The translations under genes were made by a program, and so were the position numbers. A stretch of DNA of 33,644 bases from a virus (lineage: Duplodnaviria; Caudoviricetes), in IMG/VR virus record IMGVR_UViG_3300042260_000028, positions 1 to 33,644 of that record; one strand, 5' to 3'. Numbering within the stretch: position 1 is the stretch's first letter; each line of letters starts with the position of its first letter. Below are positions 7,700 to 33,643 of the stretch, in pieces. The notes below the pieces were generated by a model, which was not told the DNA's origin, searched no databases, and was given only the letters and a program-made list of their open reading frames with translations.

Positions 7700-8605
7700 A
7701 TGGGTTTAGGTACTAATAACGTTACAGTGACAACCGCAGCAACCTTCATTCCTGAAGTTTGGTCTGATGAGATTATCGCTGCTTACAAGAAGAGCTTGGT
7801 CGCTGCAAACTTGATCAAGAAAATGAACTTCAAGGGCAAGAAAGGTGACACTGTTCACATTCCAGCTCCTACTCGCGGTGACGCTTCTGCTAAGGCTGCT
7901 TCGACTCAGGTTACTCTGATCGCTGCCACCGAAGGCGAGAAGACTGTCTCTATTAACCAACATTGGGAATACAGCCGTCTGATCGAAGACATCGTTGAAG
8001 CTCAAGCTTTGACTAGCCTGCGTCAGTTCTACACTGATGACGCTGGTTACGCTTTGGGTAAGAAGGTTGACTCCACCATCATCCAGTTGGGTCGTAAGGC
8101 TAACGGCGGTGACGGTACTGCTGGCTACACCGGTGCTTACTCCGGTGCTGACGGTACTACCGCCTACACTGGTACTGCTGGTGCTTTGACCGATGCTGCT
8201 ATCCGCCGCACTATCCAGCGCTTGGACGACAACGATGTTCCTATGGACGGTCGTTTCTTGATCGTTCCTCCTTCGACTCGTAACACCTTGATGGGTATCG
8301 CTCGTTTCACTGAGCAAGCCTTCGTGGGTGAGACTGGCGCTTCTAACACCATCCGTAACGGTGAAGTTGGTAACGTGTACGGTATCCCCGTCTTCGTGAC
8401 CACCAACGCTGACACTGCTACTGACGGTGATCGTATCTGCTTGTTGGCTCACAAAGAGTTCGCAGTGCTGGTCGAGCAAATGGGTGTGCGTACTCAGACT
8501 CAGTACAAACAAGAATGGCTTGCCAACTTGTTCACTGCTGACGTTCTGTTCGGTTGCGACGAGTTGCGTGACTACTCCGCTGTTGCTTTGGCTGTTCCAG
8601 CTTAA
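7700..8605 (+). CDS. Major capsid protein (HK97 fold, P22/T7-like)
   Basis: FIPEVWS, KGDTVHIP and GNVYGIPVFVT motifs; strong RBS taaggag; strongly biased codons; followed by a terminator. Confidence 0.92.
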   Translation: MGLGTNNVTVTTAATFIPEVWSDEIIAAYKKSLVAANLIKKMNFKGKKGDTVHIPAPTRGDASAKAASTQVTLIAATEGEKTVSINQHWEYSRLIEDIVEAQALTSLRQFYTDDAGYALGKKVDSTIIQLGRKANGGDGTAGYTGAYSGADGTTAYTGTAGALTDAAIRRTIQRLDDNDVPMDGRFLIVPPSTRNTLMGIARFTEQAFVGETGASNTIRNGEVGNVYGIPVFVTTNADTATDGDRICLLAHKEFAVLVEQMGVRTQTQYKQEWLANLFTADVLFGCDELRDYSAVALAVPA

Positions 8606-23315: not shown

Positions 23316-24061
23316 TATTCACCATCCTCATATTTGACACGGGCAATGATATAGTTCTTAACCAACGAGCTACGAACAATATCCTCGATGTGGAACTCGA
23401 CACGTACAAACTCTTTCATCTTTGCAGCAATGTCAAAGAACTTCAACAGTCCACTCTTGTCATCCTTCTTCTTCAGGTCAGTCTGTCGGTAGTCACCACA
23501 GAAGATAATCTTGGACTTGTCACCAACACGAGTGATGATGGTATCAAGCTCCTCGAAGGTCATGTTCTGTACCTCATCCACGACAATGATACTGTTAGAG
23601 AAGGTAGTACCTCGAATGAACGAGGTAGATACGAACTCAATGTGTCCTTGTTCTACCAGTCGATCCCAAGCATCCTTACGCTTGAACAGGTCACTACAGA
23701 TCTGACGATAAGGCTGAATGTAAACCTCCATCTTCTCATCTGCATCTCCCGGCAAGAAACCCATATCACGACCTTGAACGCTGCTACGGATAACTGTAAC
23801 CTTGTTAAAGGGGTTGTTACGATCCATAGCCTCTTCCAAGGCTTTGTACAAGGCAATGTATGTCTTACCTGTACCTGCTACACCATGCAAGGCCATGAAG
23901 TAGTTACTGGCCTGATACGCCTCAAAGAAGTCCATCTGCTTCTCAGTCTTAGGCTTGATGACAGTCATATCATCTAGCTTCAACTTCAAGCTGTTGCTCA
24001 CCTTCTCTCGTGGAGTTAGTTCCTTAGCTGGAATAGCTCGGTTCATTGGTTTACTTGCCAT
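23315..24061 (-). CDS. phoH: PhoH family ATPase
   Basis: GVAGTGKT, MGFLPG, FIRGTTF, VDEVQN, TRVG and GDYRQTD motifs. Confidence 0.93.
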   Translation of the reverse strand: MASKPMNRAIPAKELTPREKVSNSLKLKLDDMTVIKPKTEKQMDFFEAYQASNYFMALHGVAGTGKTYIALYKALEEAMDRNNPFNKVTVIRSSVQGRDMGFLPGDADEKMEVYIQPYRQICSDLFKRKDAWDRLVEQGHIEFVSTSFIRGTTFSNSIIVVDEVQNMTFEELDTIITRVGDKSKIIFCGDYRQTDLKKKDDKSGLLKFFDIAAKMKEFVRVEFHIEDIVRSSLVKNYIIARVKYEDGE

Positions 24062-25981: not shown

Positions 25982-26931
25982 ACAAAGCCCTTTTCATTCC
26001 ACTTACGATTATACTGATTGCCCACCTTGGCGAAGAAGTCATGGATAGTACTGGAGCTGATGCCCAAGTAGAACCACTCAGAGATTGTATCACCATCTTC
26101 TTCGAACACAGCATCAAAGCCTAAGTTAGTCAAACAGATGTTAGCCCGTGCATTAACGAAGGCTTTCATAGCTGTAGGATTGATACCTTCAATGTCTCCT
26201 TGAGAGAACAACAGGTCAACAATACGGTGCTCATGATCAACCAATGCTCGTGCTGCCTCAGTTACTCGCTGCTGCATCCATGCCTTGTCCAATCGGTTCT
26301 CTTCCATGTATGTACGGAACAGCCAAGCTCCACCTTCGTGGTGAATGTTCTCATCACGTACAGAGAAGTTGATACCTGCTACAAGATTACTCAGCTTGTT
26401 CTTACCGTTACTCTGGAAGTGCTTCAGGAAAGCAAAGCTAGAGTACAGGACACAACCTTCCATCATGCTGAAGACAGCAAGACTCAACGGGATGTCATTG
26501 CCATCAACGATGTGATCAAGATAGTGGATGCGGGATGCCAATACAGGATCGTACTGCCAAGACTGATGGAATTCCTCTGTAGCCAAGCCAAGGAGTTCAT
26601 TGATCCGGTTGTAGAATCGAGCATGTACATTACTTTCAAAGTAACAGAAGGCATCAGCCATCAAGCCAATATCAGGGTGCTGGAAAGTAGGTTTAACAGT
26701 ACCAGACCAATACTCATCACCCACAATACGTTCGTACTTCGTGAAGAGTTTAAGTGCAGTAGTAACACCATGCCGTTCAGCAGGAGTAAAGTCGGTAAGA
26801 ATTGAGTGTACATCTTTCTCCAGATCAATCTCATCAAACGTCCAGAATACACCGTTCTGTTTATCTGCAAAGGCCAGAGCCTCTGGATAGTCGAAGGTAT
26901 ATGCTGTCTTCTTTGTTAATAGGTTTCTCAT
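25975..26931 (-). CDS. nrdB: Class I ribonucleotide reductase beta subunit
   Basis: FWTFDEI, ESNVHARFY, EGCVLYSSF, RDENIH, DFF...Y motifs of the ferritin-like R2 fold. Confidence 0.92.
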   Translation of the reverse strand: MRNLLTKKTAYTFDYPEALAFADKQNGVFWTFDEIDLEKDVHSILTDFTPAERHGVTTALKLFTKYERIVGDEYWSGTVKPTFQHPDIGLMADAFCYFESNVHARFYNRINELLGLATEEFHQSWQYDPVLASRIHYLDHIVDGNDIPLSLAVFSMMEGCVLYSSFAFLKHFQSNGKNKLSNLVAGINFSVRDENIHHEGGAWLFRTYMEENRLDKAWMQQRVTEAARALVDHEHRIVDLLFSQGDIEGINPTAMKAFVNARANICLTNLGFDAVFEEDGDTISEWFYLGISSSTIHDFFAKVGNQYNRKWNEKGFVW

Positions 26932-30068: not shown

Positions 30069-30766
30069 AACTCTCCTTCATATCGTCTCAGCCACAAGAG
30101 CTGTCCCTGTTCCGTAAAGTATTCCATCGTATGACCGTGTTCTTGATACTTTTCCCACGCTGCTTGTAAAAGCCCTTCTTTCGTCTTTGCGTCTTTGAGA
30201 GCTTTCTCAGCCTTTTTAGGGCCAATTCCTGCCAAGCACGGGATGTTGTCAATCCGATCCCCCGTAAGTAACTGCGAAACAAAAGACTTAAAGGCGTTAA
30301 AATCATCGACATAGTATCTCTCATCTTTGACAGGGTTGTAGTGCCATCCTTGAAGCTGATCCAAGTCCTTATCCACATGAACGATCCAGCAATTGTCTAA
30401 CATCTTGGTCGATTCAATGGCTACGGTATCGTCAGCTTCCTCGCCAACTGTAAGGATAGCTTCGTGACGCTTGACTAGATGCTCCCGTAAGGCTTCGTAG
30501 TGCTTAGGTCGTTGAACATCCTTACGGTTGCCTTTGTATGGCACTGTCTTGGCAATGTCATAACGGTAGTTAGATTTACCTGTGATCCACGCTTTGTATT
30601 CATCAGCCTTGAGATTCACATAGATAAAGTCTTCTAACCACTCCGTTAATCTAGCCTTGGCAATGCCGACTGGCTCGTCCTCGGTACTGAATCCAATACG
30701 GTAGACAAGAAAGTCAGCATCGACCAGTGCAATCTTAGGCGAATCGTCAGAGCACGTCTGAGTCAT
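29990..30766 (-). CDS. 5'-3' exonuclease (T7 gp6-like)
   Basis: LVDAD, YKGNR, EADD, DKDLDQ, GDRIDNIP and GIGPKKA motifs. Start uncertain (30766 or 30796). Confidence 0.9.
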   Translation of the reverse strand: MTQTCSDDSPKIALVDADFLVYRIGFSTEDEPVGIAKARLTEWLEDFIYVNLKADEYKAWITGKSNYRYDIAKTVPYKGNRKDVQRPKHYEALREHLVKRHEAILTVGEEADDTVAIESTKMLDNCWIVHVDKDLDQLQGWHYNPVKDERYYVDDFNAFKSFVSQLLTGDRIDNIPCLAGIGPKKAEKALKDAKTKEGLLQAAWEKYQEHGHTMEYFTEQGQLLWLRRYEGELWQPDVNLLPNKLQQSTDSVADSKSA

Positions 30767-31163
30767 CTTCGCCTTCAGCGCCCTCACCGTAGACAACCAA
30801 GTCAGTCACGATGATCTTACCGATAGAAGGGGCAGCACCGAACTTAGCTGACATCTTGTGACGGTAGGAGCCAACCAAAGCTGTCACCTTAGTGCCGTTA
30901 CCAATCTTGCTAATGTCAACAGCGTTGCCTTCAGTGTCCACAGGCTCGAACACAAACTTGGACTTACCTACAATGTAGTTACCCATTGTGTCCTTGTTCT
31001 TGATCACAATACCTTGTGCCTTCAACGCCTCACAAGCCTTGTCAGACAGCATACCGAGTGTACATTCGTACTTGGTGTTGTCCTCGTTGAACTTGGTGTT
31101 GAACTCTTTCATCCAGTTAGCCCAGAAGAGTTGACCGGAGACTTTGGCGGGTTTGTTATCCAT
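30747..31163 (-). CDS. Single-stranded DNA-binding protein (T7 gp2.5-like, putative)
   Basis: IGNGTKV OB-fold-type motif, acidic C-terminal tail EGAEGEDDSDVL, RBS gagg, biased codons, replication context. Confidence 0.7.
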   Translation of the reverse strand: MDNKPAKVSGQLFWANWMKEFNTKFNEDNTKYECTLGMLSDKACEALKAQGIVIKNKDTMGNYIVGKSKFVFEPVDTEGNAVDISKIGNGTKVTALVGSYRHKMSAKFGAAPSIGKIIVTDLVVYGEGAEGEDDSDVL

Positions 31164-31215: not shown

Positions 31216-31300
31216 TGGTACGCCTAACCTGAGTCGAACAGGTACGCCTTTCGGCGGGAGATTTTAAGTCTCCTGTGTCTACCAGTTTCACCATAGGCGC
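31216..31300 (-). tRNA. trnL: tRNA-Leu (anticodon UAA) with encoded CCA
   Basis: Acceptor stem gcgccta/taggcgt, D-loop tggta, anticodon arm ggaga-ctTAAaa-tctcc, variable arm gcc-gaaa-ggc, T arm acctg-ttcgact-caggt, 3' ACCA. Confidence 0.96.
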
Positions 31301-31309
31301 ATATCTAAT

Positions 31310-31337
31310 ATTGTACACTGCTTTTCAGCAATGTCAA
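31310..31337 (-). promoter_or_regulatory. Sigma70 promoter for the tRNA and downstream replication genes
   Basis: Minus strand TTGACA (31337-31332), 16-nt spacer, TACAAT (31315-31310), ending 9 nt before the tRNA 5' end. Confidence 0.7.
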
Positions 31338-32050
31338 TGAGTTTCTAATCTATTTTTCAACAAGACCCAAGCTGATGAAGCGCAGAGGGGTACTTGGCCG
31401 TTGCCAATGGCTTTAAGTCTGTCCACCCTAGCGGCCACCCCATCATCCACTCTGTGAATTCCGGATGAATCTTTCCACCAACGTGAGTCGCAAGTGTTGG
31501 AGTCTTTCTGGTGTACTCTGCTGGGTAAGCTCCTTCCTTTGCGTTGTGACACGTTGGTGTTGGTAGCAACGATCCACATTCTTGCCCTCTTGTGATTAGC
31601 GCCAATGGAGCTTGATGGTAACACTCCCCATTCAGCATTGTACCCCAATGAGGCAAGGTCGTGGAGTACAGTACCGAGTCCTCTAGTGCGGAGCAACGCG
31701 GAGTTTTCAATGAAAGCGTAAGCTGGCTCGACTTCTCCAATGATTCTAGCCATGTGTTTCCACATACTTGAACGCTCTCCTTCAATTCCTGCTCCTGCTC
31801 CTGCTGAACTGATATCTTGGCACGGAAATCCTCCCGAAACAACGTCAACAATTCCTCTCCACGGCTTTCCGTCAAAGGTTTGTACGTCATCCCAAATCGG
31901 GAAACTCGGGAGAAGTCCATCATTTTGGCGGGCGCACAATACGCTAGCTGGGTAGGGTTCCCACTCAACGGCGCAGACTGTTCGCCATCCGAGAAGTTTT
32001 CCCCCAAGTATTCCTCCACCAGCGCCTGCGAATAAAGCCAACTCATTCAT
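31334..32050 (-). CDS. C5-cytosine DNA methyltransferase, catalytic (alpha-like) chain with motifs I-VIII and X
   Basis: LFAGAGG (I), GGFPCQD (IV), FIENS (VI), HKRARMWIVA (VIII), RLKAIGNGQV (X); no motif IX in this frame; start set at ATG 32050. Confidence 0.9.
   Translation of the reverse strand: MNELALFAGAGGGILGGKLLGWRTVCAVEWEPYPASVLCARQNDGLLPSFPIWDDVQTFDGKPWRGIVDVVSGGFPCQDISSAGAGAGIEGERSSMWKHMARIIGEVEPAYAFIENSALLRTRGLGTVLHDLASLGYNAEWGVLPSSSIGANHKRARMWIVATNTNVSQRKGRSLPSRVHQKDSNTCDSRWWKDSSGIHRVDDGVAARVDRLKAIGNGQVPLCASSAWVLLKNRLETH
31357..32046 (-). CDS. Overlapping +1-frame methyltransferase beta-like chain (TRD and motif IX)
   Basis: 229-codon open frame nested in the MTase gene with its own ATG 4 nt downstream; LPTPT...TPTL...GGKIHPEFTEWMMGWPLGWT resembles the TRD and motif IX. 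Confidence 0.72.
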   Translation of the reverse strand: MSWLYSQALVEEYLGENFSDGEQSAPLSGNPTQLAYCAPAKMMDFSRVSRFGMTYKPLTESRGEELLTLFREDFRAKISVQQEQEQELKESVQVCGNTWLESLEKSSQLTLSLKTPRCSALEDSVLYSTTLPHWGTMLNGECYHQAPLALITRGQECGSLLPTPTCHNAKEGAYPAEYTRKTPTLATHVGGKIHPEFTEWMMGWPLGWTDLKPLATAKYPSALHQLGSC

Positions 32051-32062
32051 AACCACCTTTCA

Positions 32063-33643
32063 TTAGTGTGTTTCTCTCCAGTTTCTTCCAATCTTGTATT
32101 CCCCGTCTAAGGGGCATCTAAGCTTGAAAGCCTCGCCTGCCTCAATGATACTCTGTCTGAAGGCTTTGCCGACCTCCTCAGCAATATCTTTAGGGCATTC
32201 GATCTGAGCCTCATCGTGAACATTGGCAACATATTTGATCTGCCAGTTGTTAGCTATAACCTTGTCGTCAAACAAGACCAAAGCCTTCTTCATCACGACT
32301 GCTCCAGCACCTTGGAGGAGCGAATTGAGAGCCGCATGCTCGGATCGAACCCAAATACGCCTCCCATCAAGTCCGGGAACCCATCCTTTGGCGGCTTGCT
32401 TTCCGACTCGTTCGAGAAGTTTAGCGAGGGCCGGTGTTTGCGATAGGAACTTGGCTTTGAGCTTTGTTCCATCTCTTGCACTGCCTCCCACAATGCTACC
32501 AATCTTTGCATCTCCCGCACCATAGAGGAAGGCGTAGATAAAAGTCTTTGCATTATCTCTAGAAGCGAGTCCTGCTGCTCTTTGGTTAACCGTGTGAACA
32601 TCCGTTCCATCTTTAGATGATCCCTCACAGACAGTTCTGACATAATCTTCATCCTTCATATAGTGAGCCAACATACGAAGCTCCAGACCTGAAGCATCGC
32701 AACCTACCAACACATTACCATCCTCTACAGTCCAGCATTCCCGGCACTCAGGCCCATAGATGGAACCTGCGTTGGGGATCTGAGCCATGTTAGGGCTACT
32801 GTGTGTCATCCGGCCTGTAACAGCACCGTTAGTGATGACCTTACCGTGTACCCTACCGTCTTTACCTACAGCTTCTAGCCACGATTCAATCTGACTGATA
32901 CGCTTGTTAAGCATAAGGTACTCAGCAATGATCTGAGCCTCTGGTATCTTAACATTAGCGAGCACAGTTTCATCAATCTTAGGCTGTCCTGTCTCGGTAA
33001 ACTCCTTGGGCTTCCAACCAAGTTCCTTCAGCTTCTCTCCGATCTGTTGTCTACTTCCGGGGTTGAAAGTAACCACGCTGTCCTTGAGTCTCTTTCCAGT
33101 TTTGTCAGAGAATCGCTCAAGTGTGACTGGAGGCCATCTCTCTTGCATTCGCTCATATATTCCTGCCACTTTTGACTTGATGTCAGTAAGTAAACAGGTT
33201 GTGTGGATCTGGTCAAGTTTGAACCCTGCCCTTTCTTGCTTGGCGATGATTGATGCAACACGATGCTCTAAGTCTACCGATTCTTGGCTAAACTGTTTTT
33301 GCTCCAGTTCACTAACCAAGTGAAGATATAACTTAGCAGTAACTTCAACGTCCCTAATGCAATAATGATTAAGAAGGTCGCTAATAGGGAAGTCGAAACA
33401 CTCACCTTTATACTCCTCTTTCCTGTCCATCATCCACTGCCATACGGCGGTGTAGTCAATCTTGTTGAACCCTAGAGTTCGTCCCCACGCTTCTAGGCTG
33501 TGTCCTGTCTCGCGACTCGGGTCTAAAAGACGACTTACTATCAATGTATCGTACACTTGACTCAAACGAATCTTCGTCTTCCATAAGCGATTCAATACTG
33601 GTGCATCGAAACTTATGCCGTTGTGCATGACTATCAACGACAC
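32063..33643 (-). CDS. DNA polymerase family A, T7-like (5' part outside the window)
   Basis: Exo II HNGISFD, Exo III YCIRD, TGRMTH, motif A DASGLELR, motif B RDNAKTFIYAFLYG, motif C VHDE. Confidence 0.96.
   Translation of the reverse strand: MSLIVMHNGISFDAPVLNRLWKTKIRLSQVYDTLIVSRLLDPSRETGHSLEAWGRTLGFNKIDYTAVWQWMMDRKEEYKGECFDFPISDLLNHYCIRDVEVTAKLYLHLVSELEQKQFSQESVDLEHRVASIIAKQERAGFKLDQIHTTCLLTDIKSKVAGIYERMQERWPPVTLERFSDKTGKRLKDSVVTFNPGSRQQIGEKLKELGWKPKEFTETGQPKIDETVLANVKIPEAQIIAEYLMLNKRISQIESWLEAVGKDGRVHGKVITNGAVTGRMTHSSPNMAQIPNAGSIYGPECRECWTVEDGNVLVGCDASGLELRMLAHYMKDEDYVRTVCEGSSKDGTDVHTVNQRAAGLASRDNAKTFIYAFLYGAGDAKIGSIVGGSARDGTKLKAKFLSQTPALAKLLERVGKQAAKGWVPGLDGRRIWVRSEHAALNSLLQGAGAVVMKKALVLFDDKVIANNWQIKYVANVHDEAQIECPKDIAEEVGKAFRQSIIEAGEAFKLRCPLDGEYKIGRNWRETH

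Follow-up and report, generated by a model that had tools for sequence, protein, structure and literature searches.

A 717-base stretch of phage DNA (31334-32050, minus strand; positions are those of the window, the whole 33,644-nucleotide stretch analysed) is open throughout in two reading frames whose starts lie four bases apart, and hundreds of relatives conserve both. The arrangement is very probably explained by two selected, overlapping frames, translated separately from adjacent start codons behind a single Shine-Dalgarno (SD) sequence, whose products are predicted to form one C5-methyltransferase (C5-MTase). The frame-0 product (alpha) would supply SAM binding and catalysis through motifs I-VIII plus motif X, and the +1 product (beta) would supply motif IX and, presumably, a target-recognition module. 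An overprinted N-terminal arm of beta is predicted to wrap the catalytic domain, holding the dimer together. A two-chain enzyme of the M.EcoHK31I kind had been proposed for this locus in a sequence-only reading. The proposal gains support from the open frames, from a switch of selection between them, from predicted co-folding and from the likeness of beta to an EcoHK31I-like beta chain.

The alpha chain (31334..32050, minus strand) is a C5-MTase catalytic domain of 238 residues counted from the first ATG (ATG1); the frame-0 open reading frame (ORF) spans 31334..32056 when counted from a GTG. It matches PF00145 and phrog_363, with residues 4-176 matching the Pfam DNA_methylase family (E 6.5e-30; 105 bits against a cut-off of 22) and residues 4-166 aligning to M.HhaI over motifs I-VIII. 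Five minus-strand segments are numbered by the usual C5-MTase nomenclature: motif I (LFAGAGGG, 32035-32009), motif IV with its PC dipeptide (GGFPCQD, 31834-31814), motif VI (ENS, 31708-31700), motif VIII (HKRARMW, 31594-31574) and motif X (RLKAIGNGQV, 31420-31385). GNGQ of motif X is near-invariant among alpha relatives (set A2). The linker between motifs VIII and X is unconserved, and the alpha polypeptide contains neither a target-recognition domain (TRD) nor motif IX, in agreement with the earlier description of frame 0 as a C5-MTase with motifs I-VIII and X.

The beta chain (31357..32046, minus strand) has 229 residues and lies wholly within alpha in the +1 frame, which is also open in homologues. 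It matches phrog_1008, labelled DNA methyltransferase, as well as phrog_26627 and phrog_35493, small PHROGs without a name that cover the motif IX-like end of the chain. No Pfam match was found for beta, and NCBIfam matched 0 of 50 beta members. LPTPT begins at 31566 and the motif IX-like segment KIHPEFTEWMMGWPLGWT (beta 192-209) runs from 31473 to 31420, where motif X resumes in frame 0; these coordinates agree with the 229-codon frame proposed earlier, with LPTPT after motif VIII and a motif IX-like segment before motif X. The segment aligns to motif IX of EcoHK31I-like beta, and the chain ends in ..HQLGSC.

Both frames have been kept open. From motif I to motif X, no stop codon interrupts the +1 frame in the window where 5.3 or 4.5 would be expected, and the frame is open beyond chance, as none of 300 recodings was stop-free under either of two nulls. 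The other genes of the phage contain 422 +1-frame stops in 8590 codons. A search with alpha alone gave 599 IMG/VR loci, of which the best 80 were taken. Five of these lacked a motif needed for the analysis; the +1 frame is stop-free from motif I to motif X in all 75 analysable loci and is also open in the five left out. Dereplicated to 35 loci, which had been chosen for their similarity to a dual-coded gene and are not independent of one another, this set has 0 +1 stops against 258 (phage codon use) or 166 (within-gene codon permutation) expected, and 534 stops in the +2 frame. The openness includes the span from LPTPT to motif IX, as the sequence-only reading had anticipated for homologous loci. 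In a GTDB set (the best 80 of 578 loci, ranked in the same way), 75 of 78 analysed loci are stop-free, with three +1 stops against 962 in the +2 frame; one of these is beta's own terminator, and the other two genuinely interrupt the frame. The two skipped loci are open.

When 80 loci were instead chosen with beta, alpha was open from motif I to motif X in 75 and in one more with a variant motif X; two loci reach a contig edge, and L120 and L122 carry one alpha stop each, so that alpha is open in 76 of 78 complete loci. The 0 alpha-frame stops against 288 in the 75 loci are zero by construction, and 288 conveys only the size of the expectation. Single stops lie at scattered positions in alpha (L044, L120, L122, L176, L180 and L202) and in beta (L148, L150, L217 and L222), and one copy has a frameshift (L237). 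These are either inactivated copies or sequence errors.

The stop counts bear on the alternative that only frame 0 is a gene, a short TRD-less or decaying methylase whose +1 frame stays open through codon use. Such a reading would fit the absence of Pfam and NCBIfam matches to beta and the annotation of frame 0 alone in most GenBank records (9 of 10 nested cultured-phage records). It is scarcely credible against a complete lack of stops where 166-258 are expected, in a phage whose other genes have them in number, and against selection over the TRD and motif IX that acts on the +1 frame.

Selection was followed codon by codon in 75 representatives below 85% identity, drawn from 221 loci, with a codon-fixation scan that ended at alpha residue 167. 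Synonymous variation, which the sequence-only reading had thought might be suppressed, is indeed lost at several alpha codons whose fixed form retains a beta residue: A133 is GCC in 59/59 (beta P132), G136 is GGG in 74/75 (G135), V114 is GTG in 50/51 (W113), R108 is CGA in 51/53 (D107) and N2 is AAT in 60/60 (M1). Over most of its span beta 1-159 is far less conserved than alpha, with identities of 0.30-0.51 against 0.58-0.95 in 70 collinear representatives, which together with its poor folding alone counts against the two-chain reading. The VIII-IX block differs. Here 24 distinct sequences with the window's module type show 4510 differences at beta third positions against 1622 and 1433 at the other two, and identities of 0.75 in beta and 0.39 in alpha, in a set chosen by a beta-frame pattern that inflates the beta identity. 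At motif X the differences revert to alpha third positions. Selection thus passes to the +1 frame over the recognition segment and returns to frame 0 at motif X.

Within this block, beta 161-191 (LPTPT...PTL...GG; 31474..31566, minus strand) probably forms the target-recognition module, and its copy number varies in relatives: one to six xTP modules occur in the beta chain of 67/75 representatives and in the alpha linker of 3/75. Position and variability together suggest that the VIII-IX segment of beta is the TRD. A fold search with the model of beta alone gave no match at Z >=5, one helix dominating, and PDB sequence searches with beta and its profile returned nothing significant, so the TRD label is without structural support.

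Motif VIII, TRD, motif IX and motif X are collinear on the DNA, an order that would also suit one polypeptide made by two programmed frameshifts, from frame 0 to +1 after motif VIII and back to 0 before motif X. For such a product the +1 frame would not have to be open and under selection across motifs I-VIII, and frame 0 would not have to be open across the TRD, yet both are observed. Slippery heptamers occur in 9/70 loci after motif VIII and in 2/75 before motif X, none of them conserved, and the homologous EcoHK31I works from two separate genes according to a passage of PMC2836561. A frameshifted fusion is therefore very improbable.

Co-folding of the two chains, a check suggested with the original proposal, supports the view that alpha and beta bind each other. 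The predicted complex scored 0.87 and the best of three controls 0.00; 0.87 is a mark reached by 116/157 solved complexes and 2/215 mismatched pairs, and one that split-enzyme halves can pass through likeness to solved methyltransferases. Repeated runs share at least 70% of contacts, with a partner pLDDT of at least 66. Folded alone, beta has a mean pLDDT of 50.6 and is confident only at 161-210, with a predicted helix at 60-79 (31810..31869, minus strand) and a hairpin at 134-144. The predicted contacts set beta motif IX against alpha motif X and also involve beta 1-9, 33-53, 66-78 and 131-150, and no alpha contact is listed for beta 79-130. Among the contacts of lowest predicted error are those of beta 134-137 with alpha 138-141 and those of the motif IX-like segment with alpha 211-221.

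Two parts of the arm stand out in this model. The N-terminal motif MSWLYSQAL (32020..32046, minus strand) is a predicted alpha contact and in some relatives recurs at a shifted place upstream of motif I. The hairpin segment at beta 130-143, TLPHWGTMLNGECY (31618..31659, minus strand), is selected in the +1 frame, also occurs in the EcoHK31I-like beta chain and is predicted to pair with alpha 138-143. By these contacts, the most constrained overprinted residues belong to the predicted interface. About 160 N-terminal residues of beta had been described as overprinted sequence of unknown role, a description that no longer fits the whole arm, since selection acts on parts of it in the +1 frame and the model packs them against alpha.

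Both chains would begin at a double start. The minus strand reads aaaggtggttATGAATGagt across it, with ATGAATG at 32044..32050, ATG1 at 32050 opening alpha and ATG2 at 32046 opening beta. An SD-like sequence, AAAGGTGGT (32052..32060, minus strand), precedes both, its best register lying 1 nt from ATG1 and 5 nt from ATG2. Among the 75 representatives the exact ATGAATG, once expected to be conserved, is found in 32, and GTGAATG (14) and TTGAATG (10) bring the more general NTGAATG to 56/75. Five of the 75 have ATG2 with no alpha start 4 nt upstream, and four fit no class. In the remaining ten the beta MxW motif lies 27-39 nt farther upstream, and nine of these have an alpha start no more than 8 nt away; MxW is kept at its new position, and the beta N-terminus is therefore selected in its own frame. 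Seven loci (L007, L010, L065, L066, L075, L080 and L095) have an N-terminal extension in which both starts and beta MxW have moved upstream together, and in some N-terminally extended subclades the beta start lies 5 nt ahead of the alpha start.

The position of the SD is a compromise. Its aligned spacing to the alpha start has a median of 3 in the 49 NTGAATG loci (of 56) whose SD could be scored, whereas 166 flanking genes have a median of 5 (p 5e-12, by an ad hoc score with an assumed anti-SD and guessed control starts), and its spacing to ATG2 has a median of 7. The SD is hence nearer to ATG1 than the optimum by 2 nt and farther from ATG2 by 2 nt, from which initiation would split between the two starts and set a rough chain ratio. 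In the window itself, the best register at 1 nt from ATG1 would favour beta unless a second register, found by eye at 4 nt from ATG1, is used. Passages of PMC9841429 describe one SD serving two adjacent starts in E. coli, and AUG initiation over spacings down to 4 nt. Start competition at a shared ribosome-binding site (RBS), as first put forward, is thus probable from the compromise spacing but is not universal, since 5/75 representatives have no alpha start there and distant clades start beta inside alpha. A hairpin over both starts folds in the window copy (z -0.28); as a regulator it was rejected, not being conserved in 56 relatives.

Upstream ORFs stop on one of two ATGA overlaps in 33/56 loci; translational coupling could therefore also set the chain ratio. 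This leads to a variant of the two-chain enzyme in which beta arises through coupling or from an internal Met (42, 43, 53 or 137) and the arm is largely dispensable. ORFs of at least 50 codons end on the ATG2 overlap in 19/56 loci and on the ATG1 overlap in 14/56, and in the window a six-codon ORF links the polA stop with ATG2. In distant clades the start of beta falls 130-160 nt past motif I, EcoHK31I-like beta begins at alpha codon 104, and Met17 and Met26 are suspected internal starts in EcoHK31I beta, as stated in a passage of PMC2836561. Against the variant, ATG2 is fixed by AAT in 60/60, MxW persists where it has shifted, the SD lies closer than usual to ATG1 across loci, and beta 1-9 falls in the predicted interface; the TGA codons at the overlaps are forced by the NTGAATGA sequence itself. 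On balance this origin of beta is unlikely, and separate initiation at the paired starts is preferred.

The nested layout and the likeness between the beta chains make M.EcoHK31I a relative with the same layout. This enzyme from E. coli HK31 recognises YGGCCR and needs both chains (PMC2836561; PMC3404938, in the passages covered). One passage of PMC2836561 reports that activity was lost, through weaker association, when at least 42 residues were deleted from the beta N-terminus; according to another, beta can do without its first 42 residues. A primer from the supplement of this paper matches 81/5426 complete E. coli genomes and had no match in plasmids. The copy fetched (L382) has a 309-residue alpha and a 176-residue +1 chain with Met at 1, 17, 26, 42 and 50; these positions agree with the primers and with the consulted text of PMC2836561, and the gene is near-identical to that of M.EcoHK31I. 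RefSeq annotates only alpha for this gene (L382 2498-3427).

The phage beta profile scores 23.3 bits against the 176-residue chain, the best of 2000 shuffles reaching 12.8, and the profile alignment pairs the hairpin (residues 37-49 in L382) and motif IX of both betas. A direct hhalign comparison of the pair is weak (probability 21.7%, E 0.001), and the likeness may be carried partly by homology in the alpha frame. Together these comparisons indicate weak homology between the two beta chains. The alpha linker of L382 contains a TL dipeptide (YTLDS). Such a dipeptide is expected in a TRD.

As in M.EcoHK31I, the phage beta is nested in the +1 frame and contributes motif IX to an alpha with motifs I-VIII plus motif X, and its hairpin overlies the same alpha segment, aligned in register. 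The differences are equally clear. The L382 beta starts at alpha codon 104, whereas the phage beta starts 4 nt after the alpha start, so that about 97% of the phage alpha is double-coded. The TRD is placed in alpha by the passages covered of PMC2836561 and PMC3404938, whereas the phage VIII-X interval is selected in beta. Finally, L382 adjoins a NotI-family nuclease, and none was found beside the phage locus. The locus is thus a variant of the known nested layout of M.EcoHK31I, set apart by the near-total overlap, the shared start, the recognition segment in beta and the missing nuclease.

M.AquI, a two-gene C5-MTase in which motif IX and a portion of the variable region belong to the small chain (PMC3404938, in part), is likewise made of two polypeptides. 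Unlike in M.AquI, where motif X belongs to the small chain, motif X of the phage enzyme is in frame 0, and alpha must therefore be read through the whole recognition segment. The double start resembles the ambiguous AUGUG/GUGUG sites of E. coli, in which a single SD is used by two starts in different frames, in proportions determined by the length of the spacer (PMC9841429, in part). The phage starts are 4 nt apart rather than 2, and they open two long, conserved frames that complement each other; for the E. coli sites, the passages covered describe no conserved function of two proteins. A second frame inside a phage methylase gene is also known from the hidden HNH of the ShiLan domain, which, in the accounts consulted in PMC11855218 and PMC9957025, is a selfish homing insertion and not a subunit. 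By term search of the accessible text, a nested second methylase chain finds no mention in these two papers, nor in PMC5537653, PMC10460002, PMC12707154, PMC5009743, PMC12350097 and PMC6070908. A two-subunit methyltransferase of an STEC prophage (PMC10810198, in part) is unrelated, being an MT-A70 rRNA enzyme encoded by adjacent genes. Within the accessible literature, M.EcoHK31I and M.AquI are thus the precedents that the search turned up, and the phage family was not found described.

The nested layout is widespread. The beta profile matches tens of thousands of called proteins, in 29,628 clusters (50% identity) at E <=0.001 and 3,845 at 1e-30, and phrog_1008 is among the families that match beta. 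The layout occurs in ten cultured phages, whose hosts are Proteobacteria, Actinobacteria, Firmicutes, Bacteroidota and Cyanobacteria; their GenBank records show alpha only in 9/10, and that of BN12 shows both chains. The earlier expectation that standard gene callers would miss the second chain is therefore only partly correct, as usually one or the other frame is called. With one chain usually annotated, target prediction and cloning of such methylases would rely on half an enzyme.

A distant set of 124 loci gave 111 analysable loci and 58 representatives, which a pattern-based sort divided into 41 nested, 2 split, 1 single and 14 unclassified. The second frame opens upstream of the catalytic PC in every row listed, and in distant clades the beta start falls 130-160 nt past motif I. 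An M.AquI-like split occurs in three actinophage loci, Noelle (L169; genes 77/76), Vash (L172; genes 32/33) and Doomphist (L174), with the beta hairpin shared by the split relatives. In all three, the second frame extends through motif X yet retains the overprinted hairpin, which suggests that nested and M.AquI-like layouts interconvert.

To our knowledge, DNA phages and bacteria rarely encode two interacting proteins by dual coding of one strand along the full length of both, and the nested methylase family is nonetheless huge. The locus is a natural test of start-codon competition at one SD. It could also test how overprinted sequence gains a binding function, and how DNA specificity changes by modules under a two-frame constraint.

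The arm may carry a further function. The consensus of peptides that bind the bacterial sliding clamp is QL(S/D)LF, as given in the consulted part of PMC9690074. In the BN12-like clade, beta begins with QLTLF and the clamp-motif pattern is present in 30/43 against 2.0 expected; the Q is kept in 30/43 over an alpha codon that varies (ACA 14, GCA 7, CCA 5, TCA 4). The clade of the window has a less strict pattern, Qx[SDTN]L[FL], in 31/75 against 1.35 expected, mostly at beta 117-121. The peptide sites thus differ between the two clades, and both resemble QL(S/D)LF. In the window copy, beta 108-121 reads QLTLSLKTPRCSAL (31684..31725, minus strand), a degenerate QxSL[LF] clamp-motif-like peptide (117-121) after a QLxLxL-like hexapeptide; RCSAL is preceded by QLTLSL, with no exact match to the clamp motif. 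The QLTLF position corresponds to the helix predicted to touch alpha in the window's beta, at residues 66-78. These patterns show selection on an arm peptide in relatives, and the clamp binding itself is putative. No sliding-clamp gene was found in the phage record, which is 88% complete.

A broader evolutionary reading would join these features. The specificity chain, beta, may have acquired an overprinted arm that came to cover the entire catalytic gene, so that in the end the two chains compete for one RBS. The arm would clasp the catalytic domain and carry a clamp-binding peptide that arose at separate places in different clades and that would link the methylase to the replication fork (compare DNMT1 and PCNA), and recognition modules would be added or swapped in the +1 frame, across tens of thousands of phage genes. 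Taken as a whole, this scenario is tentative and rather less likely to be right than wrong.

The locus lies among replication genes. In the record, the terminase, portal, capsid and tail genes are on the plus strand and the replication genes on the minus strand. A family A DNA polymerase gene (polA; 32063..33643, minus strand) lies upstream, its stop 13 nt before ATG1, and a tRNA-Leu(TAA) gene (31216..31300, minus strand) follows 34 nt past the alpha stop. Among the 37 ORFs scanned in this 88% complete record, no restriction nuclease family was found. That no adjoining nuclease was found, and the place among replication genes, make it most likely that the enzyme methylates phage DNA against host restriction. 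Protection of phage DNA from host restriction is the established role of orphan phage methylases. Palindromic 4-mers are depleted over the whole window, with observed/expected ratios of 0.36 for CGCG (the lowest), 0.57 for CTAG, 0.61 for GGCC and 0.62 for CATG, counted on both strands so that true counts are half; a target site is not assignable from these ratios.

The two-frame layout is not an assembly artefact, because contigs of run X3, from another sample and another study, tile the methylase locus with no indel row within the gene, through pieces none of which spans the whole locus. Runs X5 and X7 cover 11/30 and 22/30 bins, and the only matches in the RNA run X19 are short pieces of relatives.

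Several further ORFs were noted. The polA stop overlaps an ATG (TAATG) that opens a six-codon third-frame ORF, MKGGYE (32063-32043, minus strand), whose TGA overlaps ATG2; it was dropped as a part of the system, being absent upstream of close relatives such as L001, L002 and L085. Three antisense ORFs without a PHROG match lie over the capsid gene (7706-8512, minus strand, 268 residues), the PhoH gene (23390-23977, plus strand, 195 residues) and the ribonucleotide reductase gene (26200-26805, plus strand, 201 residues). Between the tRNA and the exonuclease gene, a 138-residue ORF (30747-31163, minus strand) without a Pfam or PHROG match has an acidic tail that, together with its position, suggests a single-strand DNA-binding protein. 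In one related contig (X19 record 1), the polA end is linked to the region beyond the tRNA by 118 other letters, with the methylase absent, and the methylase gene looks like an optional cassette.
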